This document shows positions 12,415 through 54,776 of a stretch of 64,000 nucleotides of DNA, piece by piece. Source of the stretch: an uncultured Gammaproteobacteria bacterium (GTDB lineage Bacteria; Patescibacteriota; Patescibacteriia; Magasanikbacterales; GWA2-37-8); the NCBI GenBank assembly GCA_964478235.1, contig CAYZGX010000004.1, positions 4,320-68,319 on the forward strand, given 5' to 3'. Below the pieces are notes generated by a model. That model made no database searches. It worked only from the letters and a program-made list of their open reading frames with translations, and was not told the origin of the DNA. Position numbers and translations under genes: made by a program. Every line of letters begins with the position of its first letter. Within the stretch, counting starts at the first letter, position 1.

Positions 12415-12501
12415 GGAGAGATGGCCGAGTGGTTTAAGGCAGCAGTTTACTAAACTGCCGGGCTCGAAAGGGCCTCTAGAGTTCGAATCTCTATCTCTCC
12501 G
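12415..12501 (+). tRNA. class II (Ser-type) tRNA with anticodon loop TTACTAA, formally anticodon ACT
   Basis: Acceptor GGAGAGA/TCTCTCC, D-arm GCC/GGC, anticodon arm GCAGT-TTACTAA-ACTGC, long variable arm GGGCTC-GAAA-GGGCCT, T-arm TAGAG-TTCGAAT-CTCTA. A promoter TTGACT...TACACT lies upstream and a terminator downstream. Confidence 0.7.
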
Positions 12502-12506
12502 CACAA

Positions 12507-19190: not shown

Positions 19191-19225
19191 ATAAAAAGAC
19201 ACCCACAAGGGTGTCTTTTTATTGG

Positions 19226-19310
19226 CGGAGAGGGGGAGATTCGAACTCCCGAGGCCTTGCGGCCTGCAGCTTTAGCAAAGCTGGACGATAGACCACTCTG
19301 ACACCTCTCC
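19226..19310 (-). tRNA. tRNA-Ser (anticodon GCT), class II, CCA encoded (to 19223)
   Basis: Minus-strand read ggagagg tg ...cagct-ttgctaa-agctg, variable arm aggcc-gcaa-ggcct, T-arm gggag-ttcgaat-ctccc, acceptor cctctcc g CCA. The D-stem pairs poorly. A bidirectional terminator lies at 19197-19222. Confidence 0.7.
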
Positions 19311-19359: not shown

Positions 19360-20943
19360 GTGTGGTATACTAGGCGGAATCCTATGAAACAGCGTATTTT
19401 GACCCTTATTGTCGCGAGTTTGGCTGTGTATGCCTTTGCTTTTTCTATCCTGTCTCGCACCTTTGACGGTGATTTTGGCTGGCACCTGCGTTTTGGCAAA
19501 GAAACTACCCTCGGCGCCCTGCCATATATAGATACCTATACCTATACCTTTTTTGGTCGGCCATGGAACAACCACGAATGGGGTGGTGATGTTCTCTTTT
19601 GGCTTATCTATGACGCCACCACAAACATTGGCCTCACTGCTTTCATAGTCCTGGGGGTCACTCTCGCTTTTCTTCTTTTCCCGGTAATTTTTTTGAAACG
19701 CTTTTCGCTCGCCACAATCCTCGCGAGTGGGATCACTCTCGCCACCGTTGATTATATTCTCTCTATGCGCCAAACAACAATGGCGCCGTTATTATTTGTT
19801 GCTCTTATTTATCTCTTGGAAGCTTTCCCTCGTCGACCTCGCTTGGCTTTTTATCTTATCCCGCTCATGTGGGCATGGTCGGCGTTTCACGGCAGTTGGA
19901 TTCTTGGCTATATGACCGTCGCCGTCTACGCCTTTGGTAACGCGCTTGAATATTTTAGTTACCGCTATATCCCCCGCTTGGCCAATGGTGTGTTTTGGCG
20001 ATCCAAAGACTATGCTCTGATTGGCGGAGTGACGCTTGCATCTATTCTCTCTATCACTATTAATCCGTATGGCTGGCATCTGCTAGCTGAGGTGGGCAGT
20101 TATTTTACCGAAAATTATTTCAAACAATACATCACCGAATGGTTGCCAAGCTACACCTATCCAGTCTATTGGTCGTTTTTTGTATTAGTGGCCGTCGTTT
20201 TAATTTTCACCGTACGTGGATGGTTGGCGAAGAAAATCACTATTCCGCAGTTAGGTGTTATTGCGATGATTATGCTCAGCGCGATTTTGTATCGCCGAAA
20301 CGCGCTGTATTTTGCTATGCTCGCGACCCCATTTATTGCTTACATCTTCGCCGCTGTGTGGGAGGGGTTTTCTCCACGACTCGCCAAGCACCAAAAAACC
20401 CTCTCTCTCGGAATACTGACGGCGGCGCTGGCGGTTACTGGTTATTTTTTCCGCATCGCTTGGTATATCCCTGATCCGTGGACCAACGACGCTTTTCTTA
20501 TGAGTCGAGGCTTCCCGGCCCCAGCTGTTCGCGCACTCGAGCGCGAAACCAAACAACTCGTTATCTTCAACGAATTTCATTGGGGTGGATTTTTAAACTG
20601 GACATTGCCCGACAGCTTAGTCTATCTCGACGGCCGAGGCACAGCCACTTGGCGACTATCCCCTTCAAGCACCCTCTACGGCGACTACCGCCGACTTCGT
20701 TTTGACCCAGGCGGCTTGGCTTTGATTGAAACGAGCCCAGCCCAGTATATTCTCCTGGAAAAACGTTTCTCAGGTTATTACAAAACACCAAACCGTCTTG
20801 ATCGGTTGGTTTTTGGATCTGATCTTGAAAAGATTGTTAATGCTTCAAGCACTCAGCTTGAAATCGACCTCGTCACGTCTACCAACTGGAGTGTGCTATT
20901 TGAAGACACTCATTCTATTGTCTACCGCCGGTCGCGAGAGTAA
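19360..20943 (+). CDS. polytopic GT-C-fold glycosyltransferase-like membrane protein
   Basis: 527 aa, at least 10 TM helices, an N-terminal DGDFGWHLRFG motif, and a C-terminal soluble domain. An alternative start is at 19384. Confidence 0.5.
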   Translation: MWYTRRNPMKQRILTLIVASLAVYAFAFSILSRTFDGDFGWHLRFGKETTLGALPYIDTYTYTFFGRPWNNHEWGGDVLFWLIYDATTNIGLTAFIVLGVTLAFLLFPVIFLKRFSLATILASGITLATVDYILSMRQTTMAPLLFVALIYLLEAFPRRPRLAFYLIPLMWAWSAFHGSWILGYMTVAVYAFGNALEYFSYRYIPRLANGVFWRSKDYALIGGVTLASILSITINPYGWHLLAEVGSYFTENYFKQYITEWLPSYTYPVYWSFFVLVAVVLIFTVRGWLAKKITIPQLGVIAMIMLSAILYRRNALYFAMLATPFIAYIFAAVWEGFSPRLAKHQKTLSLGILTAALAVTGYFFRIAWYIPDPWTNDAFLMSRGFPAPAVRALERETKQLVIFNEFHWGGFLNWTLPDSLVYLDGRGTATWRLSPSSTLYGDYRRLRFDPGGLALIETSPAQYILLEKRFSGYYKTPNRLDRLVFGSDLEKIVNASSTQLEIDLVTSTNWSVLFEDTHSIVYRRSRE

Positions 20944-21601
20944 AGCCGTGCACCACTTCTGCGCCAGCGTCTTTGAGAGCTTTGGCGCAGGCCTCCAAGG
21001 TGGCGCCGGTGGTGTAGACGTCATCAACGAGCAAGACTTCTTTAGGTACTTCCCCACCCTGCCAGACAAACGCTTCACGTACATTTTCGTACCGCTCCGT
21101 GCTAGAGAGTGTTGCTTGTTGTTTGGTGGCGCGAACCCGCACCAGGCTCACAGTGTTGAGTGGTAGCGAATATTTTTCTGCCAAACATTCGGCAATAACT
21201 GCCGACTGGTTATAATCCCGATCACGTTCACGCGCCCGAAACAACGGCACAGGAATGGCGGTTGGCCTGATATACTTTTCTCGCTCAATTGTTATTACCT
21301 TCTTCCATACCTCGCCGATAGTTTTTTGATGGTGATATTTAAATTGTTGAATCAGTCGCCCGATAATACCGTCAGAGGTATACGTATAGAGCGAATACAT
21401 GCTATCTAAACATGTTAGCGGCCGACAAGTGTCACAAGTGCGAGCACCCGGCGCGCGACATGATGCACAAAAACTCCTCTCTGTAAGGAGTTTTTCTTGT
21501 GTTCGGCAAGGGTGACACCACCACTCGCCTTCGGCCCTACACTGGAGACAGTGTGTAGGAAATAATGCTTCAATGAGCCACCCGACCACGCCGGATAGCA
21601 T
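20915..21601 (-). CDS. comFC: ComF-family protein (ComFC; phosphoribosyltransferase domain with N-terminal 4-Cys zinc finger)
   Basis: CLQCRAEGEWWCHPCR...CASCRAPGARTCDTCR plus the PRTase motif VLLVDDVYTTGATL. It is the last gene of the T4SS-like operon. Confidence 0.8.
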   Translation of the reverse strand: MLSGVVGWLIEALFPTHCLQCRAEGEWWCHPCRTQEKLLTERSFCASCRAPGARTCDTCRPLTCLDSMYSLYTYTSDGIIGRLIQQFKYHHQKTIGEVWKKVITIEREKYIRPTAIPVPLFRARERDRDYNQSAVIAECLAEKYSLPLNTVSLVRVRATKQQATLSSTERYENVREAFVWQGGEVPKEVLLVDDVYTTGATLEACAKALKDAGAEVVHGFTLATGGRQ

Positions 21602-21604
21602 AGG

Positions 21605-22195
21605 TTAGCGCGCTTTAACGGTGAAACTGTCGGCTAGCCAATTTTTTCCAGAGAGAACCATAACTACGGTAACATCTTGATAGCTTTCTAGTGTTTTTTT
21701 ACCGGTTTCTTCAGTGGTTTTGCGCACCTTTACCAAAACTTCCGCTCGCGCATCTGTCCAAGAATTCAAGGTGGTATTCATCGCCTCAGCCAAGACCGAC
21801 ATATATGTTTGGTTGAGCGGTGCTGGTTTGTTGAGTGGTTGACTAATCCGCGTCCAGAGTGTTGGCGTGACCAGATCTCGCACCTCGCGAATATTTTGGA
21901 AATTATTTTGAGTGGAGAAGCTGTTGTAACGCTCTACAAATACTTTGGCGAGTTGGCGAACACCGTTTTGGGTGTTCTCAAGCGACGAAGCTGGCTTGAT
22001 TTGCAATCCTGTTGGCACGGTTGTCGATGGCACACTTGGGGTTGTCTGGTAGACTGGCACAGGAGCGGTGGTGGTGACGCCCGGCTCAACCGCTTCTCCT
22101 CCGCGCGAACGGATAAAACGCACCAACAAAACTGCCCCGACAAAAGCGAGGACGAGGAGCGCCATTCCAATAAATATACGGTTGCGTAGAGGCAT
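21605..22195 (-). CDS. VirB8-like bitopic protein (N-terminal TM plus NTF2-like periplasmic domain), tentative
   Basis: 196 aa with a single N-terminal TM helix, a Thr/Pro-rich linker, and a C-terminal beta-rich domain (...YQDVTVVMVLSGKNWLADSFTVKAR). Confidence 0.35.
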   Translation of the reverse strand: MPLRNRIFIGMALLVLAFVGAVLLVRFIRSRGGEAVEPGVTTTAPVPVYQTTPSVPSTTVPTGLQIKPASSLENTQNGVRQLAKVFVERYNSFSTQNNFQNIREVRDLVTPTLWTRISQPLNKPAPLNQTYMSVLAEAMNTTLNSWTDARAEVLVKVRKTTEETGKKTLESYQDVTVVMVLSGKNWLADSFTVKAR

Positions 22196-22206
22196 AGACA
22201 GATAGG

Positions 22207-24081
22207 TTATTTGGCAATTTGAGCTTCAAACTCTTTTTTAGCTTTTTCAATTTCCATCAATTGCTCTGGATTGGTGGTGACGATCTGATCTTCGGTGTAG
22301 GAAGCCACCACTTTGATAGCTGCGTGCTTAAACCCAGCAAAGAAAATACCTTCACCCACTCCACTCTCGAGCAAGAGATATTTTTCACTATCGGTGAGGA
22401 GAAACACTTTTTGGATAAGATCCACCGACGCTGGCGATTGTTTCATGAGAAGCTGAAGCGCCGAGTTGGTCACAATCGCTTGGCCATATTGCGATTTCAA
22501 GAAATCGTTCACATCTTGGGTGATAGTGGTCACACCGAGATAATATTTGCGACAACGTTTGACGAGAGCAAAGATAAACCGAGCGGAGTCTTCGTGTTGC
22601 ATGAGCCACCAAGCTTCATCAATAACTAAAATGCGTTTCTTGCGTTCACTGCGCACCACATTCCAGATATAGTTGACGATAGCGTAGATAGCTAGTGGGC
22701 GAAGCTCGTCTTCCAAATCACGCACGGAGAAAATAACCAACTGGTTTTTCATGTCTACATTGGTTGGCGAGTTGAACAAGCCAGCAAAGGTACCTTCGGT
22801 AAATTTCTTGAGCTTCAAGACCAACTCTTCGGAGCCTTCCATGCCTTCCAAAACTTCTTCTAAATCTTGCATGATTGGCGGTTCAGCGGTGCGCAAGTCT
22901 GCGTCATTGGTAATATCTTTTTTAGCATAGGTTTCAATGAGCGCCCGGTCGATCAGCGAATCCTGCGCTGTGGTGAGACCGCCAAGCATAATACGGAGCA
23001 ACCCTTTGACGGTAATAACGGCGCCACGGATAACATCTTCGGTGGACACTTCCTGACCCATTGGGCGAGGCAAATCAAACGGGTTAATTTTTGCTTCTGA
23101 TGACAGCGAGATATTTACATAGGTACCGCCAACAGCATCGCAAAGATGTTTGTATTCCATTTCCGGATCAATAACGATCACTTCCACACCCATCATCATG
23201 GTACGGAGGATTTCTAATTTCACCGCATAACTTTTACCAGCACCGGACGTCGCGAAGACGACCATGTTGGCATTCTGCAGCGAGAAACGATCAAACAAGA
23301 TAAGACTATTGTTATGGCGGTTGATGCCATACAAAATACCACTATCACTCGTGAGCTCAGCCGAAATGAATGGGAACGAGGCCGCAATTGGGCTGGAGTT
23401 CATGTTGAACGAAATCAGAAGCTCGTCGTTACAGAGTGGCATAGTGGAATTAAAACCTTGCTCTGCTTGATAGAGAACTTTGCGGGTGTTGATAAGTTTG
23501 GCACCAAAAATACTTTCAATATCTTCCGAGGCTTGATCGAGCTTTTCTTTGCTTTCAGCGTATACGGTGATGTAAAAAGCAAATTGGAAAAAGTGCTCGG
23601 TCCCCTGAGTCAAACTGTCGCGCAATTGTTCAATATCGCGAAGCGCTGTTTCACGTATTGGGTCGCGCGGCGCGCCTTTGTCATGATCAGCAGTGATTTG
23701 GGCTTCGAGCGCACCCACTTTATTTTTGAGTTGTTTTAAAATAATTTCTGCTTTGACCGGATAAAAATACATGGAAATATCCATGGTGCGCGACAGGTTG
23801 ATAATTGGCGAACTCCAACCGATAGAAATATACCGAGGATACGAAACGACAAATAAGGTTCGGCAAAAGGTGGTGCCGAGCTGGATAAAATTAGACTCGA
23901 CATTAAAAGCTGCCGGCGCAATAAGATCGCGAATCGAGACGACACCTTCGCGATAAATCCGCTCTTCTTCGAGCGTCACCAACTCTTCGCTCGATTTATC
24001 CGCGAGTTTTTTCTCTTCTTTTTCCAGTTTATTTTCTTTGATGCCAGTTTCTTTGCTGACACTCGTTGGTTTAAAAGCCAT
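22207..24081 (-). CDS. VirB4/TraE/PrgJ-family T4SS ATPase, C-terminal ATPase portion
   Basis: Walker A GAGKSYAV, Walker B ILVIDEAWW. Its N-terminal region aligns to the VirB4 mid-domain. Confidence 0.85.
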   Translation of the reverse strand: MAFKPTSVSKETGIKENKLEKEEKKLADKSSEELVTLEEERIYREGVVSIRDLIAPAAFNVESNFIQLGTTFCRTLFVVSYPRYISIGWSSPIINLSRTMDISMYFYPVKAEIILKQLKNKVGALEAQITADHDKGAPRDPIRETALRDIEQLRDSLTQGTEHFFQFAFYITVYAESKEKLDQASEDIESIFGAKLINTRKVLYQAEQGFNSTMPLCNDELLISFNMNSSPIAASFPFISAELTSDSGILYGINRHNNSLILFDRFSLQNANMVVFATSGAGKSYAVKLEILRTMMMGVEVIVIDPEMEYKHLCDAVGGTYVNISLSSEAKINPFDLPRPMGQEVSTEDVIRGAVITVKGLLRIMLGGLTTAQDSLIDRALIETYAKKDITNDADLRTAEPPIMQDLEEVLEGMEGSEELVLKLKKFTEGTFAGLFNSPTNVDMKNQLVIFSVRDLEDELRPLAIYAIVNYIWNVVRSERKKRILVIDEAWWLMQHEDSARFIFALVKRCRKYYLGVTTITQDVNDFLKSQYGQAIVTNSALQLLMKQSPASVDLIQKVFLLTDSEKYLLLESGVGEGIFFAGFKHAAIKVVASYTEDQIVTTNPEQLMEIEKAKKEFEAQIAK

Positions 24082-24082
24082 A

Positions 24083-24766
24083 TTATTCTTCGGTTCGTAA
24101 TTCGTTCAAATTGCCCAACTCTTGGGATAAAGCAATATCAGTATTATACGTCGAAAAGTACAGTTCGATAAGCGACTGAGTATCGAGACGCACGGTGGTG
24201 AGCCCCATCGAGCTCAAGCCCGACTCAATTTGGCGCACTCGGCTATCTAAATCATATTTGCGCTTAGTAAATCGTTCGCCTTTGAGCTTGATCACCGAGG
24301 CTGGATTGACCACTTCGCCCATTCTGGCAAAAAATCCTTTATTTTTGTTGGAGCTTGGATCGTAGGGTACGACAACGTAAAACTGCTTGTTCATAATTTC
24401 GCCAAGCGATACGAGCTCGCTCACAAAGGCTCGATAATCGGCAATTTGCGTGCGAAGTAATTCGTTAGTTTGATTTTTTTCTTGCTCCAACAGCTTATCC
24501 ATATACGGCTTGGTCTGGAGTTTGCGCGATTGGATCAAAATCTGGAGCGGATGATCGAGTGAATTTAAAAATGAAACGTAGCCCGAAATAATCGCACTTT
24601 GTTCATCTTCGTTTTTGAGGGCGAAGTTGATACTCGACACCATAATGACCGCTCGAAGCGTACCATCTTTCATCACCACCGTGTCTTGCTTGATTTCTGA
24701 AATCAAAAGATGGTGCTGGGTGGAAGGCATTTTTGGTTTTTTTTGAACTGGCTTTGTATCTTTCAT
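24083..24766 (-). CDS. VirB4-family N-terminal domain as a separate ORF
   Basis: VVMKDGTLRAVIMVSSINFALKNEDEQSAIISGYVSFLNSLDHPLQILIQSRKL is typical of the N-terminus of Gram-positive conjugative VirB4. The stop is TAA, followed by 1 nt, then the ATG of the next ORF. Confidence 0.6.
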   Translation of the reverse strand: MKDTKPVQKKPKMPSTQHHLLISEIKQDTVVMKDGTLRAVIMVSSINFALKNEDEQSAIISGYVSFLNSLDHPLQILIQSRKLQTKPYMDKLLEQEKNQTNELLRTQIADYRAFVSELVSLGEIMNKQFYVVVPYDPSSNKNKGFFARMGEVVNPASVIKLKGERFTKRKYDLDSRVRQIESGLSSMGLTTVRLDTQSLIELYFSTYNTDIALSQELGNLNELRTEE

Positions 24767-24769
24767 ACA

Positions 24770-25201
24770 TTATTCCCCTTTATAATAACCGCCCGTATTC
24801 ACCATGAGTGATAAATCTCGGATGCGCGTATGCGAGGCGGACTTGGTCAAATCTGCTTTCTCCTCAACTTTTTCTGGCTCATTATCTTTCATAATCGCTT
24901 TGAGCTCAGCAACGGTATTAAATTTATTCCAGGCTCGGCGACTTGGACGGCGGGTAGTCTGGAGAATATTCAGCAAGAAAAAATGAAACGGTTGGCCGTT
25001 GATAGTAGCAAAGGCAAAAATCAGGGTGAGCCCGCCGATCAGGGCGAGAAGCACAATAAAGAGCGATGTATCGGCAAATTTAAATGATAAAAAACACAGC
25101 AAACCACCAACTAGGATAATCACAAATTGACGGCTCGTAATTGGCCCAAAAATTTTATCCTCCACGTCAATAAATTGTGGCACCATGAATTGGTTCATCA
25201 T
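24770..25201 (-). CDS. VirB3/PrgI/TcpE-like small membrane protein
   Basis: 143 aa with two TM helices, immediately upstream of VirB4 as in Gram-positive T4SS loci. Confidence 0.45.
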   Translation of the reverse strand: MMNQFMVPQFIDVEDKIFGPITSRQFVIILVGGLLCFLSFKFADTSLFIVLLALIGGLTLIFAFATINGQPFHFFLLNILQTTRRPSRRAWNKFNTVAELKAIMKDNEPEKVEEKADLTKSASHTRIRDLSLMVNTGGYYKGE

Positions 25202-26445
25202 AGGTAGTCGAGTTGACGCTCCATAGTTATAATCGCTTGCATTTCCAGGAATGTAATTGTTTTAGTATCGGTGAGAGCGCTAAGCGGAGTCTTGCCGGCA
25301 AGCGCATGAATCGCTGTCGTTACATATTCTCCGTAGAGCGGTGACGCTTTCCAAGCATCAAGCGCTTCGAGATATAGCAAAATTGACTCGCCTTGTAGGT
25401 TGATAAACTTTTGTTTGAGGCGAAGAGCTGCTTCTTCAGGTTTGTTTGAAAGCCGACGGAAATCGGTGAGACCAAACGAGCGAATTTCGTCGGTTGGACC
25501 AACTGCTCCAGGTTTGGCAATAATATCTTTCATTGACGATTTTGCTCGCGAGTCGGCGGCGAGTTTCATAAACGGATCTTCGGCAGCAGTAGTTTTGGTG
25601 AATGTTTCAATGACTTTCTCTTTCGTGAGCGGAGCGGCTGGGGTTGAAGCTGGTCGAGGCGACACCACCGGCATTGGGCGTGGAACAACAGGGGTAGCGA
25701 CCGGCTGAGCGGTCATTGGCTTTGGTGCTGGCTGGAAAGCCGGCTTTGACGGAGTAGCCTGAACAACCGGCTTAACTGGAGCAGGTGCCACTGGTTTTGG
25801 CGAACTCGTTGCCTCTTGGCCATGTTTGAAAGCATTAAATGGTGTGGTGGTGGCTGGTAGTTCTTTTTTGTACGGAATAAGATCTTCAAAGCCTGGAAGA
25901 TGTTTCAAAACTTCGTGAGCCTGGTCGCGAGTGAGACCAACTCCCCCATCTTGTTCAGATCGACTGAGCGCTTCTTCTACCTGATCAACACTACGAATAT
26001 CTTTGAGGCGAAGCTGAATCAAAGTGCGAAGACGGTTGAGATTATTTTTAGAAACAGTAAACGATAATTTTCCGATGATTTCATCGGCTTGAGCATCACG
26101 CGGCAAACTAATCAGTGGTGCGCCAGAGCTGGTTTTTGGAGCTGGCTCTTCGAGGAGTGAGGACATGTCAGCTTTTGGCAGAGCTGACTTGGCTAGGCGA
26201 GGTGGTGCGACTGGTGAAGTCGCTACTACCGGCTTTTGCTCAGGAGCAGGCTCAACTGGTAAATTATCCGGCACGACAACGGGTGGTTTTTCTGGAACAG
26301 AGGCAACCTGAGTCGGAACGGCTGGAACTGGAGCTGGCGAAGCCGATGCTCCAGCTTTTTTTTGACGAATCTCATCAAGGCTCATGCGCACCATAGTGCC
26401 ATCAGCTTTTTTGACAAGAATTGTTTTTCCTCCTGTGTCGGCCAT
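25198..26445 (-). CDS. hypothetical Pro/Ala/Val-rich protein
   Basis: 415 aa with low-complexity PVxP tracts. ATGA overlap with the downstream gene. Confidence 0.5.
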   Translation of the reverse strand: MADTGGKTILVKKADGTMVRMSLDEIRQKKAGASASPAPVPAVPTQVASVPEKPPVVVPDNLPVEPAPEQKPVVATSPVAPPRLAKSALPKADMSSLLEEPAPKTSSGAPLISLPRDAQADEIIGKLSFTVSKNNLNRLRTLIQLRLKDIRSVDQVEEALSRSEQDGGVGLTRDQAHEVLKHLPGFEDLIPYKKELPATTTPFNAFKHGQEATSSPKPVAPAPVKPVVQATPSKPAFQPAPKPMTAQPVATPVVPRPMPVVSPRPASTPAAPLTKEKVIETFTKTTAAEDPFMKLAADSRAKSSMKDIIAKPGAVGPTDEIRSFGLTDFRRLSNKPEEAALRLKQKFINLQGESILLYLEALDAWKASPLYGEYVTTAIHALAGKTPLSALTDTKTITFLEMQAIITMERQLDYL

Positions 26446-26452
26446 AAAAATA

Positions 26453-27499
26453 TTATTTTAAAAGCGCTTCGTTCCATTCAAACGCGCCAGTTTGTTCGTT
26501 GTAGACATACAACTCTCGTATTGTATCATCGTTATACTTTACTGCCCACTCTTCGAGCATACCAAGCACCGCTTCAGGATCTTCAAATTGCCCATCTTCA
26601 CTCTGTTTGAATTTACTTTGGGCAACAAGTTGAATATCTAGATAGGTTGGTTTTGGGGTTGGAGCGGCAGCAACAGAAGGTTTTACAGCTGGCTTTGCTT
26701 CGGTCTTTGGGGCGGTTTGTGGGGCTGGAACTGGCTCAGTAACAGCCGAAGAAGGCCCCTCGCCTACAACCTTGCCAGCAAGCGCTCGCTTATATTGCAC
26801 AGCGCCTTCTTCAATATAGGCGTCGATCGCATCAGCCATGCTTGGATTAGTATAGGCCTGCACTGTAGCCCAAATTGACGACGGCTCGCGCTCGGTAAAG
26901 AAGTCGTATAACCCAACGAGTTGCTCGATCAACTCTTTATCTTCAGCAATAGAAAAGCGCATTGCCCCCTCATCATTTTTCGCAAAAAAGGTATCTTTAA
27001 TTTTTCCCATGACTTCGGCCACTTCGAGCGAGGTAGTGGTGCTCAATTTTGTTCGTTTAATATCGGTGATAAGATCTTTAACCAGCACATCTTTTCCTTG
27101 CCACACCCCGACAAACGCCTCAGATTCAAAAAAGGCTTGGCGAATATCTGCATAAAGTACGGCCATATCTTTGTCATCAAGACTGCGTGAAGCCAAATAC
27201 CACATGATTGTTTTCCAGACATCAAAATCAAGAGTAAAGGCCATTGCAATCTGCCGACCAATCACTATCTTTACAAAGGTATCGCGATCGAGCTCAGCAT
27301 AGAGCTTCCAGGATAGCTCTGTATACAATCTAAAATACGTCCAGCGATACAAACTATCAACCCGAGCATTTTCTCCTTTAAAATCTTCGTGGAGTTTGCC
27401 CCAGGTAACCAAAAGATCTTCAGGTTTTTTATGCCCGCTACGAATAGCTTGTTCAATCGCTTCAAACGATTGTATACTGACTTGTTTAACAAACAACAT
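26453..27499 (-). CDS. hypothetical protein (T4SS operon)
   Basis: 348 aa with no recognisable domain. Confidence 0.5.
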   Translation of the reverse strand: MLFVKQVSIQSFEAIEQAIRSGHKKPEDLLVTWGKLHEDFKGENARVDSLYRWTYFRLYTELSWKLYAELDRDTFVKIVIGRQIAMAFTLDFDVWKTIMWYLASRSLDDKDMAVLYADIRQAFFESEAFVGVWQGKDVLVKDLITDIKRTKLSTTTSLEVAEVMGKIKDTFFAKNDEGAMRFSIAEDKELIEQLVGLYDFFTEREPSSIWATVQAYTNPSMADAIDAYIEEGAVQYKRALAGKVVGEGPSSAVTEPVPAPQTAPKTEAKPAVKPSVAAAPTPKPTYLDIQLVAQSKFKQSEDGQFEDPEAVLGMLEEWAVKYNDDTIRELYVYNEQTGAFEWNEALLK

Positions 27500-27542
27500 A
27501 GTGTAAATAAACCGCTCTAAAAACTCTGTTCACTAAATAGTA

Positions 27543-30500
27543 CTAAGGGTTCGCTGGTGGTTGAGGTGGCGGAGGTGTACCAGCGGCACCGCTTTGACCT
27601 GCATTATTACGATTCTGTCTATTTAAATTATCAATAACGCCCTTAACATAATTCTTTTGGTTAGCATCTGTCATACGCTCATAGGCAAACTGCAACATCT
27701 GCGCCAAACCACGGCTATCTTTGGCACTTTTTACTAACTCATCAACCAACTCCTGTGTCTTGCCCCCTGAATTATCCAAAATTTCAGCGAAGTCTGCCTT
27801 GACGTATTCATCAATACTAGAAGTAATGTTGTTGGTAACTGGCGCTACCATTTTCACTACGATATTCTTAGATTCGTCAGATTTGACGACGTATTTACCA
27901 TTTGTATTTTTATCTACCGAACCACCAAAGCCGGCTAAAGTGGTAATTTTAGAGCCGGACAACGCATTGTCACGACGACCTTTCACATAACTTAAGCCAT
28001 CAGAATCATCTTTTGTAAGCACTGTTTTGAGCTGACCATCTGGTAGTGTTTCCACACTGAAAAGACCAGCTAAACTTAGCGCACCTTGACCAGCGGCTTT
28101 TTCAGACTCAAGACGAATTTGCGAGCGTAGTTCTTCAGGAAGAGAGCTAAACTCCCGCTCAACATCAGCCTCACTTACCGCTTTATTTAAAATAGCGCTA
28201 AGACGCTGAGCTTGATTTCTTTTTAGCGCAGGAGCTGCAATTTCAACACTTGAATCAAGCGGAATGTTGGCCCCTGCTTTATTAAGTTCTTTTAATACTG
28301 TCATCTGAATACCTTCAGCGTAGGCAGCGTGACGATCCAAATTACCAATAGACATTTCAATAGCGCCTTGTCGCAACTGATTCAAGGCTGCTGCAGCTTC
28401 TGCTGCTTGCGCTGGGTTTCCTGCTGAAGCCAAAGCTCTTTCGGCATCTTGTACTCTTTTCAACTGCGCAAGACTACGGGCCATAGCGGAGATGAAGTCA
28501 CCAACAACCTGAGCTTCAATTTTAACTTTAGCTTGCTTATCAAGTGTTTTTTGTAAATTAGTGGCTTCGCTAGCGCGATTGTTGCGAGTGAGATATTCGT
28601 CGCGAGCCTTGGCAACTTCTCGTTCTCGCTCAGTGCTTGTTTTATATTCCACCTGCTCAGTGACAGCTTTGGCGGCAAAAAAACCTGGAACACGTTCTTG
28701 AGCGGCCAACGTTTGTTCGGAACGAACAGCCTGACGACCAGCTTCATCGCGCTCGGCGGCTGCTTTTGCACCAAAGACATCAGCTTTTTGTTCGGCTGCC
28801 AAGACACTGGCTTCGCGCTTACTTTCTACACCAGCTTGAACAACATTTTTTTCTGCTTCATATTTAAACACTTTAGCTTTTTGTTCGGCAGCTAGAATTT
28901 GTTCGGCATTTTTAGCTTCAATCTGTGCTTCAGCGGCTTTAGTGTTGGCTCGAGCGCCAAGAATTATACCTTCTCGTTCATGGAATGTTTCATCGCCTTT
29001 TTCCATTAATTTAAGCTCATGCATGGCGTATTTTTCTGCTCGTTTTGCTTCGGAATGTTGTTCGATTTGATGTTCACGAACACCTAAATCAAGCTTGAGC
29101 TGACCTTGCCATGATTTACTCGTGCTGTAGGTTTCTTCCACAATAACCTCCTGCATGTGCGCAGCCTTTTCAACATCTTCTAGACGCTTCTCAGCACGAC
29201 CGCGGGTTTCAACAATCATAGCACCGAGTGTGCCAAGCTTACCGGCCAAACCAGCTTTTTCTTTATTTTTATCAACAGTCCCTTGCTGTTTGGCGAGCTC
29301 TGCCTGTTCTTTTTCTGTCAAACCGCCGCCGGTTCGCTGTTTCTGTTCGAGACGAGCAATTTCTTTTTTAGCAGCAACTGTTTCTTCGATAGCTTTAGCT
29401 TGCGCGTTACGTTTTTCATCAGATTTTCCAATAGCAATTTTTGCCACGTTCAAACCGGTTTCAGCCAAGCGAACGGCTGGACGAGCGGCATATTTAAGAG
29501 CTTCTTTGCCTGCTTCAGCACCTTTATCAACAGCCCATCGTGCCGCCATCGCACCACTGGCATACATACCAACTTTCTTGCCAAAATCCACTGCTTCACC
29601 AGCCCATTCGCCACCGACGCCACCAAGCTGACTGGCAGCACGAGCGCCGACCATCAACATACCAATAGCGATAGCGAAATTGGCCATATTGTTCCAATCC
29701 CAGGCCGCACCAACACCCGATGCCTGATCACCCAAAATACTGTCGGCGTCGGCCGTGTTAATTACCGAGCCACCAGCGATTTCATCATGCACCTTGCCGT
29801 TGCCAGCAGTGACAAAAGCGAGCCAGATAAAAAACAACAACACCGGACCGGTGATGACGTTGGCTGTAAATTCACTCCACCACTGATTAGCATATTCTTC
29901 GGTTTGTGGAAGTACGCTCAACACAAACGCGAGTGGCGACAAAACAATCAGCACCCAGAGCACCACCATGCGGGCAATCAACATGAACAAAATAGCCAGC
30001 ATCATTCCCATCGCAATAGAGGCAAAGACGAGCGAACCAACTGAGGCTAGGAAAATATTCGTATTATCAAAAGTTTTTGGATCAGCACTGGTGGAGAGTT
30101 CGCGAATCTTGTCCAAATTAAACATCTGAATTAAATTACCGCCAGCAGTGGCGGCAATACCGTTCACAAAAGTAATCATCACTACTTGCGCAACATCAAT
30201 CACGACACCACAAATAGTTCGACTAAAGTTCACCAGAATAGCGGCCATCACCATTTTTACCAACATTTTTTTCCATTCGTAATGTTCCAGGCCAAGAATG
30301 GTGCCAAAAGCAATGACTAATAAAATCACAACAAAACCCATGTTGGTAATATCTCGGACCATCACCCAACCAACATTGACGGCGGAGGCATTTAAGAAAT
30401 CGTTATAGCCCGCGAGCTCAATAATAAAACTGAGCGCAAACATGGTGAGCGACAAACACAAGCGAGCGAGCGCCAAAATAATACTGGTGAGAAGCGACAA

Positions 30501-30701
30501 CCAAAAGCCTGGGCTCGAGATGCCATCGGTGGCAGTCTGTACACCTGGGGCTGTTTCGCCGGCAGCAAAAGCCGGGTGAACACCTGCTATTGCCATCGCA
30601 CTTACGATACCAAAAAACATCGCCACACCGATGGTTTTTCGATGGCGATAGAGTGACTTTTTCCATGACGAGACTACTTTTTGGACAAGCTCAAAAGACA
30701 T
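27543..30701 (-). CDS. VirB6/TrbL-like polytopic membrane protein with long C-terminal coiled-coil/Ala-Lys-Glu-rich extension
   Basis: 1052 aa with an N-terminal signal peptide, at least 6 TM helices in the first 450 aa, a coiled-coil-rich C-terminus and a PPPPQPPANP tail. Confidence 0.55.
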   Translation of the reverse strand: MSFELVQKVVSSWKKSLYRHRKTIGVAMFFGIVSAMAIAGVHPAFAAGETAPGVQTATDGISSPGFWLSLLTSIILALARLCLSLTMFALSFIIELAGYNDFLNASAVNVGWVMVRDITNMGFVVILLVIAFGTILGLEHYEWKKMLVKMVMAAILVNFSRTICGVVIDVAQVVMITFVNGIAATAGGNLIQMFNLDKIRELSTSADPKTFDNTNIFLASVGSLVFASIAMGMMLAILFMLIARMVVLWVLIVLSPLAFVLSVLPQTEEYANQWWSEFTANVITGPVLLFFIWLAFVTAGNGKVHDEIAGGSVINTADADSILGDQASGVGAAWDWNNMANFAIAIGMLMVGARAASQLGGVGGEWAGEAVDFGKKVGMYASGAMAARWAVDKGAEAGKEALKYAARPAVRLAETGLNVAKIAIGKSDEKRNAQAKAIEETVAAKKEIARLEQKQRTGGGLTEKEQAELAKQQGTVDKNKEKAGLAGKLGTLGAMIVETRGRAEKRLEDVEKAAHMQEVIVEETYSTSKSWQGQLKLDLGVREHQIEQHSEAKRAEKYAMHELKLMEKGDETFHEREGIILGARANTKAAEAQIEAKNAEQILAAEQKAKVFKYEAEKNVVQAGVESKREASVLAAEQKADVFGAKAAAERDEAGRQAVRSEQTLAAQERVPGFFAAKAVTEQVEYKTSTEREREVAKARDEYLTRNNRASEATNLQKTLDKQAKVKIEAQVVGDFISAMARSLAQLKRVQDAERALASAGNPAQAAEAAAALNQLRQGAIEMSIGNLDRHAAYAEGIQMTVLKELNKAGANIPLDSSVEIAAPALKRNQAQRLSAILNKAVSEADVEREFSSLPEELRSQIRLESEKAAGQGALSLAGLFSVETLPDGQLKTVLTKDDSDGLSYVKGRRDNALSGSKITTLAGFGGSVDKNTNGKYVVKSDESKNIVVKMVAPVTNNITSSIDEYVKADFAEILDNSGGKTQELVDELVKSAKDSRGLAQMLQFAYERMTDANQKNYVKGVIDNLNRQNRNNAGQSGAAGTPPPPQPPANP

Positions 30702-30860
30702 GGAGACAGAATTATCAAATGGATAGGTTTAGTATACCACAAAATAGCCAAACCAACGAGACAATGTGGGGATAATACCTGACTGTTTTGAGCGGTTTTG
30801 GCGAGTTTTGCTGAAAGGTCGTTTTTTTGGCTAAGATACTATCCACAGGGCGCACTAGTC

Positions 30861-30889
30861 TTGACAAAACGCCTGTGCTATGGTATATA
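30861..30889 (+). promoter_or_regulatory. consensus sigma70 promoter with extended -10 facing GC-rich islet 4
   Basis: TTGACA (30861-30866), 17 bp spacer, tggTATATA (30881-30889). Confidence 0.55.
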
Positions 30890-31146
30890 TGTATGTTGTC
30901 TAAGAAAGAGAAGTAGGGCTGTTTTTAGCCATTTCTAGACATTTTGATCATTAAAAACGAGTGCTCGGACAAGAATAGCAATATTCTTCCCCGCCTCTAT
31001 AACGATGGAAATAACACAAGACGACCTAGAGTCGCTGGAGATTGGCCATGAGAAAATTACTTCACAGTACGGAGTAGTTGTCTAACGGCCAATCTCGGCA
31101 ACGGGCAATCACGCCCAACTCAAACCCCCTACACGGGGAGGATCCC

Positions 31147-32022
31147 ATGCGCAGCATGTATCTGAAGGGGCTCCTCGGAGCCATCACCCTTTCTCTCGCG
31201 GTCGCTTGCGGCCCCGGGACGCCCGGCAACCCGGACGGCAACGACATCGGCAACGATGGCGGAGCTGTCTCGGAGAAGGTCGCTGTCAAGAACGTCCAGA
31301 TCGTCGATCTGCAGAAGAACCAGGCCACCTTCAACTTTGAGGTTGTGGGCCAGCCCGTGAGCGTCACGGGTACTTGTAAGACGGTCGGCACCACCGACTG
31401 GCACCAGGAAGGGTACGCTGTAAAGATCGGAGGAGGACGGTTCTCCTACACGGCGGGTCTCAACCCCCGCCTTCTGCCCGACACGGCCTACGAATTCGTC
31501 GCGACGGCCATTGACACCGACGGCGCCACGAGCGAGGTTACGATCTCGTTCACGACGCCCAAGGATGTTCCGGTGGAAGATCCGATGTGGACGTATGCCA
31601 AGGCGGTGATTCAGGGCAAGTACAATGTGGCACGTGAAGACGTGAACGAGCTGGTTGACCCCAACCACATTCGTCTCTCAACCACCTCAACGACGAAGTG
31701 CCCGACCGGCAAGAAGCTCTCGGGCCTCGGCTGGGAGGACTCTATCTGTTTCGACCCGGTGACCCTCACCGGCCACCGCCAGATCGACAATGATCGGATC
31801 GACATCACCTTCGAGATGTGCAACGTCTCGGCGGTGAACGAGAACTTCCCCCAGTTCGCCGAGATCACCAACGCCTGGTGCCAGACGCATGTCTGCCCGG
31901 CCGAGTGTCTCGACCAGTGGGGGCAGCCTCGTAGCGCCCAACTCATCATGCGCAGCACTGAGCTGTTCATGGGCGTAACCACCAACGGAACGAATCTGAA
32001 GGTCGAGAACTTCAACAACTAA
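31147..32022 (+). CDS. hypothetical secreted lipoprotein (GC-rich islet 4)
   Basis: MRSMYLKGLLGAITLSLAVAC, a lipobox-like signal peptide. GGGGAGG lies 7 nt upstream. An upstream ATG at 31078 is possible. Confidence 0.55.
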   Translation: MRSMYLKGLLGAITLSLAVACGPGTPGNPDGNDIGNDGGAVSEKVAVKNVQIVDLQKNQATFNFEVVGQPVSVTGTCKTVGTTDWHQEGYAVKIGGGRFSYTAGLNPRLLPDTAYEFVATAIDTDGATSEVTISFTTPKDVPVEDPMWTYAKAVIQGKYNVAREDVNELVDPNHIRLSTTSTTKCPTGKKLSGLGWEDSICFDPVTLTGHRQIDNDRIDITFEMCNVSAVNENFPQFAEITNAWCQTHVCPAECLDQWGQPRSAQLIMRSTELFMGVTTNGTNLKVENFNN

Positions 32023-32101: not shown

Positions 32102-32136
32102 CAAAAAACCTGTACAGATATTCTGTACAGGTTTTT
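32102..32136. terminator. bidirectional intrinsic terminator (A6-aacctgtacag-atatt-ctgtacaggtt-T6)
   Basis: An 11-bp stem flanked by an A-run and a T-run. Serves the convergent islet 4 ORF and the giant minus-strand gene. Confidence 0.75.
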
Positions 32137-32158
32137 TCGTTTGAGAGATTTCTCCTAG

Positions 32159-40039: not shown

Positions 40040-40042
40040 TGA

Positions 40043-52509: not shown

Positions 52510-53298
52510 CTAATTTGAGGCTAACTGGTTAGGCTTTGGAAGGGGTTTGGTGGGGGTTTTACCGGTAATAACCACCCTATCTCCCACGTCTAAAAAGGCG
52601 TACATTTTCTCTACATCTTTATAGGAAATATTCACGCAACCGTGGCTCATCGGGCGAATACCAAACTGATTGTGCCAATAGGCGCCGTGAAGATAGAAGC
52701 TTCGCTTAAACTCCAAATTCCACTTGGTGTTCGGCAGGTTATACCCCGGACCAACATAGTGATGTACTGGCAATTTACGTATGATTTCAAATTCTCCCGT
52801 TGGGGTTGGGGTAGCTAATTTTCCACTCGAAACTGGAACAGTGGCGATTTGTACTCCACCTAAAAAATAGGCTAGCTGCTGTGTACTCAAATCTACTTCG
52901 ACATGGCGTTCCAAACTGCGATCACGATCGCCTTTGAGCGGGTTAAAGCCATTTTTTACCTCAGCTCCATCAAGAAAGCTGTCGTCGTCAGTGTCGGTAT
53001 CCAAAAGATCGGTGTGGAGTTCGATTTCTAATTCATCGGATAACCCATCTTTGTCGGAATCAACTTCAGACATTTTTTTCATATTAGGAAAGCGTGGTGA
53101 ATAGCCGGTGTCCACTTCTTTGCCGTCAGAAAAACTATCACTATCCGAGTCGTTGTTGTTTGGATCAGTGTGATACACCAATGTTTCTAGATCATCTGAC
53201 AAACCATCACTGTCAAAATCAACCGACGAGATAGCCTGAACAACTCCACCATTGAGGAGGAGAGCAAAAAAGAAAATAAGGCCGATAGATTTGGTCAT
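52510..53298 (-). CDS. L,D-transpeptidase (YkuD) with N-terminal thrombospondin-type-3-like acidic repeats
   Basis: DSDGLSDDLE / DSDSDSFSDGKE / DSDKDGLSDELE repeats, then the catalytic HGCVNI motif. Confidence 0.7.
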   Translation of the reverse strand: MTKSIGLIFFFALLLNGGVVQAISSVDFDSDGLSDDLETLVYHTDPNNNDSDSDSFSDGKEVDTGYSPRFPNMKKMSEVDSDKDGLSDELEIELHTDLLDTDTDDDSFLDGAEVKNGFNPLKGDRDRSLERHVEVDLSTQQLAYFLGGVQIATVPVSSGKLATPTPTGEFEIIRKLPVHHYVGPGYNLPNTKWNLEFKRSFYLHGAYWHNQFGIRPMSHGCVNISYKDVEKMYAFLDVGDRVVITGKTPTKPLPKPNQLASN

Positions 53299-54140
53299 GG
53301 CAGTAGTATAGCACCTCCCTCGTCTGTCCGTAAAATAGCTATCCCCCATTTTTCTAGCCGCCGAATCACTCGAAGCGACGGGTGGCCATAACGATTTTTC
53401 TTACCTGATGAGATTATAGCTGTGGTCGGACCGACCGCCCGAAGAAAATCTTCACCACTCGAACTATTGCTTCCATGATGACCGACTTTGAGCGTGCTCG
53501 CCCCAAGCGCCAAACAACGCCATTTTTTAGTCGGACAATATTTTTTGAGCAAAGCCTGTTCAAGTGGAATTTCTGCGTCCCCTGTAAATAAGAACGAGTC
53601 ATTTTGGTGTTCAAGACGAAAAACAATAGAAAAATTATTACTGTCGTCACTCGGTAGTGTCATCAACAAACTGCTGTCTGGAGAGAAAAAATACAGGCGA
53701 CTATCGCCTATCCTCCACCGAGCTGGTGCTGTGAGTTTTTTTATTTTTTGACCTTCATTAGCAATGCTTTCTTCAAACGCCTGCCAAGCTGGATCACCCG
53801 GCTTTGTGCGACCGTTGGTAAAAACCCGTCTTACATCGTAGCGATTCAACACTTCGGCACAACCACCATAGTGATCGAGATCGGGGTGCGTGACGATGAG
53901 ATAGTCAATAGTGCGAACATACGCTGGCAGAGCTTGTCCAATTTCGCTTAACACTTTTTTATTCGGCCCGCAATCAATGAGCGTGGTTTCGCTGGTTTCA
54001 AATTGAATAAGCGAGCTATCCCCTTGCCCAACATTCAAAAACCACACCCGAAAGGTGTGGCGCTTGGTTTCTGACCAATAATAATACAAGACAGCGAGCA
54101 GGCTGAGTGTGGCGACAGTGAAAAATAGTCTTTTTTTCAT
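53295..54140 (-). CDS. ComEC/Rec2-related metallo-beta-lactamase-fold protein (stand-alone)
   Basis: N-terminal TM helix and HxHxDH motif (IVTHPDLDHYGG). Confidence 0.7.
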   Translation of the reverse strand: MKKRLFFTVATLSLLAVLYYYWSETKRHTFRVWFLNVGQGDSSLIQFETSETTLIDCGPNKKVLSEIGQALPAYVRTIDYLIVTHPDLDHYGGCAEVLNRYDVRRVFTNGRTKPGDPAWQAFEESIANEGQKIKKLTAPARWRIGDSRLYFFSPDSSLLMTLPSDDSNNFSIVFRLEHQNDSFLFTGDAEIPLEQALLKKYCPTKKWRCLALGASTLKVGHHGSNSSSGEDFLRAVGPTTAIISSGKKNRYGHPSLRVIRRLEKWGIAILRTDEGGAILLP

Positions 54141-54164
54141 AGTGCTGACGAGTCAGCACCCCCA

Positions 54165-54776
54165 TTATTTTTGCGCAACGATAATTTGGTTGACCCACAC
54201 ACCACCCTCTGCCACTCGCACATCCTCAACAATCGTATAAGCGAGCTCTTCCAATATTTCTCGGATTTTTTCCGGTCGATGATAATACGACTCGATCACA
54301 ATATCTCCTTCTGAAGTCGCGACTACTGGCGGATCTTTTTGATTAATATTAGTTACCACCAATCGCCCACCATCTTTGAGGACAGCGTACGCTTCGTCAA
54401 AAAACCGGCTTGGGTCTTTGAGGTGAACAATCATAAAGGCCGAGATAACGATATCAAACTCCGTATCAAGAAAAGATAAAGCCTCGGCGTCACCAACTAC
54501 TGTAGTAATTTTTGGATTTTTCTTTGTGACTATCTTTAACATCTCTTCGGAGACATCAAGCGCGGTAACAACAGCTCCTAGCTTGGCGAGCTGCGTTGCC
54601 AGTCGCCCGGTGCCAGCGCCGACATCTAAAATCGTTTTACCGAGAATATCACCAAGCAGTGGTAGCAGGCGGTTTTTTTCAAAACTGTTGAGGTATTTTT
54701 CTTTGGAATCATACTCTGAGGCTGCGAGATCGTAGCCTTTAGCTGAATCATAAACTTTTATTTTTCCTTTGGACAT
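54165..54776 (-). CDS. class I SAM-dependent methyltransferase
   Basis: Motif I ILDVGAGTGRLA and motif post-I VTALDVSEEM. Confidence 0.75.
   Translation of the reverse strand: MSKGKIKVYDSAKGYDLAASEYDSKEKYLNSFEKNRLLPLLGDILGKTILDVGAGTGRLATQLAKLGAVVTALDVSEEMLKIVTKKNPKITTVVGDAEALSFLDTEFDIVISAFMIVHLKDPSRFFDEAYAVLKDGGRLVVTNINQKDPPVVATSEGDIVIESYYHRPEKIREILEELAYTIVEDVRVAEGGVWVNQIIVAQK

Follow-up and report, generated by a model that had tools for sequence, protein, structure and literature searches.

A type IV secretion operon ending in comFC in a Magasanikbacterales genome

We analysed a 64,000-nt stretch of contig CAYZGX010000004.1 (hereafter the window), from a genome placed by GTDB in Magasanikbacterales GWA2-37-8; all statements of absence about its gene content refer to these 64 kb. 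The minus strand of the window carries, from 30701 to 20915, eight head-to-tail open reading frames (ORFs) that encode a Gram-positive-type type IV secretion system (T4SS) and end in comFC. A preliminary description of this DNA had reported a tightly packed, single-strand operon here, and all eight ORFs were recovered where it had placed them. In 5' to 3' order the genes are as follows.

27543..30701, minus strand: 1052-aa polytopic membrane protein, first gene, candidate "extended VirB6" (hydropathy, weak family matches)
26453..27499, minus strand: p348, 348-aa soluble protein with no transmembrane (TM) segment, signal peptide or family match
25198..26445, minus strand: p415, 415-aa soluble protein with no TM segment, signal peptide or family match (structure model)
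24770..25201, minus strand: PrgI-family protein (VirB3 analogue), 143 aa (PF12666)
24083..24766, minus strand: TrsD-like protein, 227 aa, separate-ORF homologue of the VirB4 N-terminal domain (NF041427)
22207..24081, minus strand: VirB4 ATPase of the CD1110 / MPF-FATA type, 624 aa (NF045971, PF19044, PDB 4ag5)
21605..22195, minus strand: VirB8-like bitopic protein, 196 aa (AlphaFold2 model and Foldseek)
20915..21601, minus strand: ComFC of the ComF/GntX family, 228 aa, last gene (TIGR00201, GntX, PF00156, DZR_2)

The intergenic distances are, in the same order, 43, 7, -4, 3, 1, 11 and 3 nt, and GC content is flat over the operon (0.44-0.49), like that of the whole window. Short spacing is usual here: gaps of 12 nt or less occur in 19 of the 36 other same-strand gene pairs of the window, and the unrelated RF1/Sua5/glycosidase/KsgA genes are packed in the same way. 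Because tight packing is the norm in this genome, gene spacing alone is not evidence of a functional unit; the evidence is conserved adjacency.

The Gram-positive-type secretion core proposed in the preliminary description is borne out by VirB4, PrgI and TrsD. VirB4 scored 366 bits against the CD1110-family model NF045971 (cutoff 325; model positions 171-728 of 752) and also matched PF19044 at E 1.5e-28. Its nearest solved structure is the C-terminal domain of Thermoanaerobacter VirB4 (PDB 4ag5, E 1.7e-50), and the Walker A (ATSGAGKS) and Walker B (ILVIDE) motifs are intact. PrgI, which had been described as VirB3-like, matched PF12666 at E 8.3e-10, its 39.5 bits exceeding the model cutoff of 27, and has two or three TM helices within residues 17-65. 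To place these proteins among their relatives we used a synteny sample of 80 GTDB species representatives (L001-L080). VirB4 is 72-85% identical across the 80; the corresponding ranges are 55-78% for TrsD, 43-69% for PrgI (detected in 75 loci), 27-43% for ComF and 24-52% for the VirB8-like protein, and KsgA, compared at one shared locus, stands at 55%. Judged by these identities, VirB4 is exceptionally constrained relative to KsgA, ComF and the VirB8-like protein, which would fit an essential role.

VirB4 had been described as lying in two ORFs. Two ORFs are present, but they do not represent an unusual split: the upstream one is a native TrsD. It matched NF041427 at E 9.5e-9, with a score below that model's cutoff, as well as positions 100-237 of VirB4_plasma and positions 18-98 of conju_CD1110, and the public gene call is annotated as PF26593 (TraC-like). 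Of the 80 related loci, 78 likewise encode TrsD apart from VirB4, and the spacer between the two ORFs varies. In the Firmicute Pontibacillus (NZ_CP062975), the source of the closest plasmid-borne VirB4 (35% identity), the ORF preceding virB4 is 30% identical to the TrsD of the window (E 8e-31). Since the arrangement is near-universal in relatives and shared with a Firmicute, the separation of the two genes is ancestral. A frameshift pseudogene was considered as an explanation for the two ORFs and rejected on the same grounds, namely that the arrangement is kept in relatives with variable spacers and recurs in a Firmicute.

The Pontibacillus locus (Pontibacillus sp. ALD_SL1, 898-kb plasmid, 351801-361354) may represent the non-conjugative arrangement in a Firmicute. 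It is a relaxase-less-looking cluster on a megaplasmid classified as "non-mobilizable", it lies beside flagellar genes, and its order is a pilin-like Mbov_0395 gene, a 779-aa membrane protein, a small ORF, a TrsD-like gene, virB4 and a 1050-aa DD-metalloendopeptidase.

The 196-aa protein had been called VirB8-like, and this was confirmed by its predicted fold. No Pfam or NCBIfam model matched it at E <=0.1. In the AlphaFold2 model (mean predicted local distance difference test score, pLDDT, of 78, with domain blocks at 85-96) a TM helix at residues 3-31 is followed by a disordered linker and an NTF2-like alpha+beta domain at residues 71-195. The top Foldseek matches of the model were CagV (6iqt, E 1.5e-4), TcpC (3ub1), VirB8 of Bartonella, Agrobacterium and Brucella (4mei/2cc3/5jbs), PrgL (7aed) and TraH (5aiw), and the target-length-normalised TM-scores of these VirB8-family matches were 0.56-0.72. 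The modelled structure thus identifies the protein as VirB8-like by fold, not by sequence hidden Markov model (HMM).

The 1052-aa protein, which had been called VirB6-like, fits that assignment in topology and position, but our searches did not establish homology to VirB6. Hydropathy predicts about 7-8 hydrophobic helices in residues 23-360 followed by a hydrophilic, coiled-coil-rich tail of about 650 aa, a layout that matches the description of "extended VirB6" proteins (PMC12857230), and the protein occupies the first position of the operon. It matched NF046089 (CD3337/EF1877 mobilome membrane protein) weakly, at E 9.8e-4, as did 11 of 53 relatives (best E 2e-7), and there were single matches to the Mbov_0396 and pLS20_p028 TM families. 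There was no match to Pfam TrbL (PF04610), none between a profile of its N-terminal domain and PDB sequences, and none by tblastn among 72,556 plasmids; alignment with the 779-aa Pontibacillus neighbour (hhalign) recovered only a short 'PQT..W' motif at 5.9% probability. The N-terminal domain was found in 56 loci at 30-58% identity. Topology, position and weak matches to conjugation membrane families make the protein a candidate VirB6, weakly supported.

The two proteins encoded next, p348 and p415, had been listed as unknown, and they matched no Pfam or NCBIfam family in our searches. p348 has no TM segment or signal peptide. It is restricted to the lineage (34 loci, 22-36% identity), and neither it nor its 33-member family gave a Pfam, NCBIfam or PDB-profile match beyond scattered single chance hits; the family profile found nothing in the PDB below E 0.02. 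p415 likewise has no TM segment or signal peptide; its model shows long Pro-rich stretches of predicted disorder that connect three small modules of confident fold, and no specific structural neighbour was found for the modules.

The last gene encodes ComFC, as reported. The protein matched TIGR00201 at E 5.6e-29 over positions 6-189 of 190, with 101.4 bits, below the trusted cutoff of 233.55, and GntX at E 1.1e-23, with further matches to PF00156 (Pribosyltran) and DZR_2. It has four CxxC motifs and the phosphoribosyl pyrophosphate (PRPP) loop VLLVDDVYTTGATL. A ComF profile searched against the PDB found Helicobacter pylori ComF (7p0h) at E 3.4e-4 through the PRPP loop, which confirms the phosphoribosyltransferase module only. 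Residues C18, C21, C29, D193, D194, T197 and G199 are invariant in 64 orthologues; the catalytic and zinc-ribbon residues of ComF are thus fixed, and the gene is therefore under purifying selection.

In the window, comFC starts 3 nt past the stop codon of the VirB8-like gene. This arrangement is general among relatives. The order membrane protein, p348, p415, PrgI, TrsD, VirB4, VirB8-like protein and ComF is maintained across the 80 loci, and in the 65 with enough downstream sequence for ComF adjacency to be judged, comF lies on the same strand directly after the VirB8-like gene in 63, with a median gap of 3 nt. The flanks are less constant than comF. A gene for p527, a polytopic membrane protein convergent with comFC, is present in 12 of 48 loci, and the gene for a giant surface protein lies upstream in 13 of 21. 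At two further loci (L083 and L084) the upstream flank has been replaced by a class II aminoacyl-tRNA synthetase gene (PF00152) and comF is retained. Given the conserved adjacency, the less constant flanks and the invariant residues, we conclude from the sequence comparisons that comFC is a genuine conserved member of the cassette and the terminal gene of the operon.

The linkage is confined to this lineage. When metagenomic ComF loci were restricted to the 44 whose upstream sequence reached 2.8 kb or more, virB4 was found upstream in 2, both of the Magasanik type. In a neighbour-joining tree 64 of the 66 T4SS-linked ComFs form one clade, and the sole "unlinked" members inside it come from two contigs too short to judge. 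This suggests that the linkage is lineage-specific and probably goes back to a single ancient capture that was kept by inheritance. As the linkage traces to one event, 63 of 65 should not be read as 63 independent observations.

The relatives also place the locus taxonomically. Relatives of VirB4 number in the thousands. Identity is 82-100% among the best 120, in which every named one belongs to Candidatus Magasanikbacteria or Patescibacteria. The 80 species representatives belong to the same Magasanikbacteria / Patescibacteria group, and the cassette is present in all of them. Magasanikbacteria fall in the class ABY1, so the link to Saccharibacteria drawn in the preliminary description does not hold for this locus. 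No relaxase, type IV coupling protein (T4CP) or recombinase/integrase Pfam family was detected in the approximately 60 ORFs of the window, in agreement with the absence of relaxase and coupling protein noted before, and the genomic context is chromosomal housekeeping. All annotatable ORFs outside the operon are housekeeping genes: SMC, ClpP, VanW, an ABC-F ATPase, KsgA, Sua5, RF1, GroEL, YidC, NusA, LeuRS, Fpg, GDH, thioredoxin and IF2. Searches of the window ORFs likewise found no VirB9 or VirB10 family match and no recG, radA, dprA or comFA; no small two-TM ORF that could encode a VirB2-like pilin was seen among the unannotated ORFs, although no dedicated pilin HMM was applied. By all these sequence criteria the locus is securely a vertically inherited, chromosomal, non-conjugative T4SS core of the Patescibacteria clade, derived from Gram-positive MPF-FATA conjugation machinery.

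The T4SSs of this phylum have been surveyed by Quinonero-Coronel et al. 2025 (Microb Genom 11:001409, PMC12102498, May 2025). They described a monophyletic Patescibacteria VirB4 clade that is related to MPF-FATA, relaxase-less and chromosomal. TrsD was the most abundant T4SS component, and PrgI, VirB6 and rare VirB8 homologues were concentrated in ABY1. They counted 109 homologues of relaxases across 103 genomes of Patescibacteria, 15 of them near virB4, and found T4CP homologues mostly distant from virB4 and ksgA near it. One sentence of that survey states that comF, recG and radA are common in ABY1 T4SS loci; within the literature searched, it is the only work to treat comF, virB4 and the candidate phyla radiation together. 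The window is a member of the ABY1 group that they describe. It shares with those loci the MPF-FATA-related VirB4, separate TrsD, PrgI/VirB3, a candidate VirB6-like protein, a VirB8-like protein, a chromosomal setting, ksgA nearby, no relaxase or T4CP beside virB4, and co-localised comF. Nothing essential is different; the window has no VirB2-like pilin genes, recG or radA. The preliminary description had held that the coupling to comFC and the missing conjugative genes were worth documenting. The ComFC-T4SS association, the missing relaxase and the TrsD/VirB4 split are already published (PMC12102498), and the locus is a good example of them rather than a discovery. What our analysis adds is a quantified linkage (comFC terminal in 63 of 65 loci of Magasanikbacteria, with a gap of 3 nt), evidence for a single lineage-specific capture, a VirB8 fold confirmed from a model, two family-less soluble cassette proteins, and a corrected taxonomic attribution.

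A second closely comparable system is the T4SS of the saccharibacterium Southlakia epibionticum ML1 (SEML1_0006-0019; Wang et al. 2023 Cell, PMC10633639). It is likewise chromosomal, in an epibiotic Patescibacterium, is built of Gram-positive-like subunits and has no recognisable relaxase or coupling protein in its cluster. It differs in that its virB4 is followed by an essential VirB2-like pilin array and by peptidase/lysozyme genes, and in that no VirB8 homologue was recognised by structure. In the window operon, pilins and hydrolase are absent, whereas a VirB8-like protein and comFC are encoded. In ML1 the T4SS is essential; ComEC, which mediates transformation, ComF and DprA are non-essential, and ComF is absent from that paper's listing of the T4SS cluster. 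Another paper infers that the essentiality of the T4SS cannot stem from interaction with ComEC; the Patescibacteria themselves are monoderm (PMC12857230).

With the conjugative MPF-FATA systems of Firmicutes (CTn2/CD1110, pGO1 Trs, pCF10 Prg/Pcf, pIP501 Tra and pCW3 Tcp) the window shares a CD1110 VirB4 above cutoff, a separate TrsD, PrgI, a VirB8/TcpC/PrgL fold and a monoderm architecture without VirB7, VirB9 or VirB10. Unlike them, the window operon has no T4CP, relaxase, origin of transfer (oriT), peptidoglycan hydrolase (VirB1/TcpG/PrgK) or adhesin; the locus is not on a mobile element, and VirB4 identity is at most 35%. DNA importers of the T4SS family that work without relaxase and T4CP are known, namely H. 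pylori ComB and archaeal Ced. ComB resembles the window in being a T4SS without relaxase or T4CP in a cell with ComEC and ComFC, as a functional analogy only: it is a diderm VirB2-4/6-10 system that moves dsDNA across the outer membrane only, whereas Patescibacteria are monoderm, and homology is confined to the generic VirB3, VirB4, VirB6 and VirB8 modules. H. pylori comFC is not known to belong to the comB operons. The crenarchaeal Ced system (CedA/A1/A2 with the VirB4-like CedB) shares a single-membrane envelope and the combination of a VirB4/HerA-family ATPase with a polytopic membrane protein, and it imports DNA without a relaxase. The VirB4 of the window gave a partial CedB match at E 5e-15, with 55 bits against a cutoff of 700; the window has no CedA homologues, and a ComFC partner is missing from Ced.

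That the locus is a non-conjugative chromosomal T4SS of the Patescibacteria type, with comFC in its cassette, is secure; the readings of its function that follow are proposals. Our preferred reading, to which we give a probability of roughly 45%, is that the T4SS is a DNA importer with ComFC as a cytoplasmic receiver that replaces the coupling protein. The operon would be expressed as a single transcript from a promoter just upstream of 30701, and its products would form a VirB4-powered channel across the single membrane and the wall at the site of host-cell contact. In the Magasanikbacteria lineage this channel would handle DNA inward. ComFC, which in other bacteria is a membrane-associated single-stranded DNA (ssDNA) binder that connects DNA entry with processing in the cytoplasm, would be made stoichiometrically with the channel. 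It would substitute for the absent coupling protein by accepting single strands as they enter, and these would then be directed to recombination or to nucleotide salvage. An alternative or cooperating membrane pore might be the split ComEC, which lies at a distance of 24 kb. A role with DNA is plausible because relaxase- and T4CP-free importers (ComB, Ced) exist and VirB4 partially matches CedB. It is also plausible because ComFC of H. pylori, a protein required for transformation, associates with the membrane, binds ssDNA and takes part in transporting and handling DNA (PMC9005727), because recG and radA occur in ABY1 T4SS loci (PMC12102498), and because comFC is conserved at the level of the whole cassette. 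Patescibacteria have a T4SS that is essential in the one tractable species, yet is without everything that conjugation needs; a lineage with comFC fixed in the T4SS operon offers a concrete DNA-import hypothesis and defined protein pairs for interaction tests.

A more specific version appears unlikely to us, if attractive: a contact-dependent importer, converted from conjugation machinery, in which VirB4 and TrsD would pull host DNA through the VirB6/VirB8-like channel, ComFC, translated from the shared mRNA, would take over from the coupling protein as cytoplasmic ssDNA receptor, and p348 and p415 would be lineage-specific adaptors. If true, this would be a bacterial monoderm counterpart of archaeal Ced and a direct route of nucleotide acquisition for organisms unable to make nucleotides.

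Several points weigh against DNA import. The Patescibacteria T4SS clade is monophyletic, and S. epibionticum, the one member examined by genetics, needs its T4SS but can do without ComEC, ComF and DprA (PMC10633639, PMC12857230); because of these genetics, the core function of the T4SS is probably not com-dependent DNA uptake. The link between comF and the T4SS reflects one event, as the single neighbour-joining clade and the 2 of 44 metagenomic loci indicate, and unrelated genes are spaced just as tightly in this genome. The genome may also have a T4CP gene at another site, which is the case for many Patescibacteria (PMC12102498). Another explanation we regard as a serious contender, though short of an even chance: the T4SS may keep a Saccharibacteria-like essential job (protein or effector export into or onto the host, or a host-contact structure), and comFC may be an inherited passenger, a housekeeping competence gene that landed once, in the Magasanikbacteria ancestor, at the 3' end of an operon with strong expression and was kept by the sticky gene order of streamlined genomes. 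The S. epibionticum phenotypes (PMC10633639), the single origin and lineage-specific linkage of the ComFs, and the equally tight packing of the 19 other gene pairs, RF1/Sua5/glycosidase/KsgA included, all suit a passenger. So does the slow evolution of VirB4 (72-85% identity) beside a ComF drifting at 27-43%, and p348 and p415, family-less, soluble and with long disordered linkers, could be secreted substrates or adaptors. Against a passenger stands the adjacency of comF, which matches the core T4SS genes in its conservation, far exceeds either flank, and persists at L083 and L084 where a flank has been replaced. The T4SS linkage of recG and radA in ABY1 (PMC12102498) also points to DNA, and Pfam and NCBIfam searches of the operon proteins detected no domain of effector or toxin type.

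Two further explanations were considered. The system could donate chromosomal DNA, as do the Neisseria gonococcal genetic island T4SS and Thermus TdtA ("transjugation"), with ComFC on the outgoing strand. Its ancestry in conjugation, the ssDNA affinity of ComFC (PMC9005727) and the lack of any identified import-specific component are compatible with export, but import seems more useful than donation to organisms that lack nucleotide synthesis (PMC10633639), and ComFC is known from the import side only. Known DNA-secreting T4SSs require a relaxase or nickase and a coupling protein, and none of these was found in the 64 kb. We therefore consider export improbable. Least probable, to the point of being a marginal candidate, is an ordinary or decaying integrative and conjugative element (ICE); its relaxase, T4CP and integrase would then have been lost or be situated beyond the window. 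The VirB4, PrgI and TrsD families do originate from conjugative elements, a tRNA-Ser gene (19223-19310) lies 1.6 kb beyond comFC, and our view is limited to 64 kb of the genome. However, the same cassette is chromosomal in at least 80 species-level genomes, with a VirB4 (72-85%) more conserved than KsgA (55%); GC content does not vary, and the window yielded neither an integrase nor repeats at the flanks. Relaxases are also sparse near virB4 in the phylum, with 15 of 109 homologues in 103 genomes in its vicinity (PMC12102498). An ICE seated at the tRNA-Ser gene was rejected, there being no integrase or repeats and the cassette being universally and vertically present.

The preliminary description had also proposed profile searches, a synteny comparison and structure predictions. 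The profile searches on the window ORFs recovered the VirB3, VirB4, ComFC and ComEC families, and a VirB8 profile match, TrbL, ComFA, relaxases and T4CP were not found in the 64 kb; synteny placed comF after the VirB8-like gene in 63 of 65 related loci. Structure prediction resolved the 196-aa protein as VirB8/NTF2-like and left the 415-aa modules without a specific structural neighbour. As a whole, what the preliminary description observed holds once the taxon, the identity of TrsD and the giant gene, which forms a separate unit, are corrected; its interpretation finds partial support.

The features that surround the operon, together with the ComEC locus, are as follows.

30702..31146, no strand: putative divergent promoter region between the operon and a lipoprotein gene (sequence, inverted repeat, promoter scan)
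31147..32022, plus strand: lipoprotein gene, opposite in strand to the operon (translation, lipobox LSLAVAC)
32103..32137, no strand: 16-nt perfect hairpin (inverted-repeat search)
19360..20943, plus strand: p527, 527-aa polytopic membrane protein, convergent with comFC (hydropathy)
53295..56268, minus strand: ComEC in two pieces with a methyltransferase gene between them (PF03772, TIGR00361)

The region 30702-31146 is the predicted promoter region of the operon. An extended -10-like element, TGGTATACT, lies about 25 nt 5' of the first operon ATG, a promoter scan marked a promoter-like site at 30867-30838, and an imperfect 24-nt inverted repeat (83% complementary) at 31038-31096 may be an operator. 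Consensus promoter and terminator scans were uninformative inside the operon, and neither Rfam nor a tRNA search revealed an RNA element within or beside it; all short inverted repeats found were terminator-like or in the divergent promoter region.

The lipoprotein ORF (31078-32022, plus strand; probable start 31147) lies just upstream of the operon and has a raised GC content (0.51-0.54 against about 0.46). Lipobox ORFs of 167-279 aa occupy the same slot in the same orientation in 12 related loci (L001, L003, L004, L006, L009, L012, L030, L034, L036, L037, L040 and L058). None of these 12 was matched by the window lipoprotein in tblastn at E 1e-5, and by inspection the sequences look unrelated; the gene is thus conserved in position and hypervariable in sequence. 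The public gene calls in this slot are two antisense ORFs of 121 and 179 aa, which are apparently wrong.

Beyond the lipoprotein gene, a minus-strand unit at 32159-40657 encodes a 204-aa TM protein with TSP3 repeats and, 3 nt later, a 2626-aa Cys-rich surface protein with one CBM_4_9 domain. The giant gene had been called immediately adjacent to the operon. It is nearby, but it forms a separate transcription unit behind the opposite-strand lipoprotein gene and the hairpin at 32103-32137. This hairpin, placed after the lipoprotein gene and before the giant-protein unit, has A and T runs on its flanks; it probably terminates transcription in both directions and so insulates the 2626-aa gene from the T4SS operon. 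The C-terminal approximately 250 aa of the giant protein are conserved (25-36% identity) upstream of the T4SS in 13 of the 21 loci with enough flank, and the protein may be an adhesin partner of the T4SS. On the other side of the operon, p527 has about 7 TM segments and is without a match in Pfam or NCBIfam; its gene shares 29 nt with the 3' end of comFC. Of 48 GTDB loci, 12 have a homologue converging on ComF in this way, as do L083 and L084, which have a different upstream flank.

The ComEC gene had been placed 24 kb away, and its first ORF was found at that distance from the operon start, at 54748-56268 (PF03772, E 7e-56). This ORF carries the DUF4131 and Competence domains (TIGR00361 positions 124-357). 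The C-terminal metallo-beta-lactamase-type (MBL) nuclease domain is a separate ORF at 53295-54140 (TIGR00361 positions 425-663, E 1.8e-39), and between the two pieces lies a class-I S-adenosylmethionine (SAM) methyltransferase gene (54165-54776) that overlaps the 3' end of the ORF for the N-terminal part. Elsewhere in the window, ARAGORN predicted a tRNA-Ser at 12415-12502 on the plus strand (Rfam tRNA, 54.5 bits) with the unusual anticodon ACT, which would read AGU.

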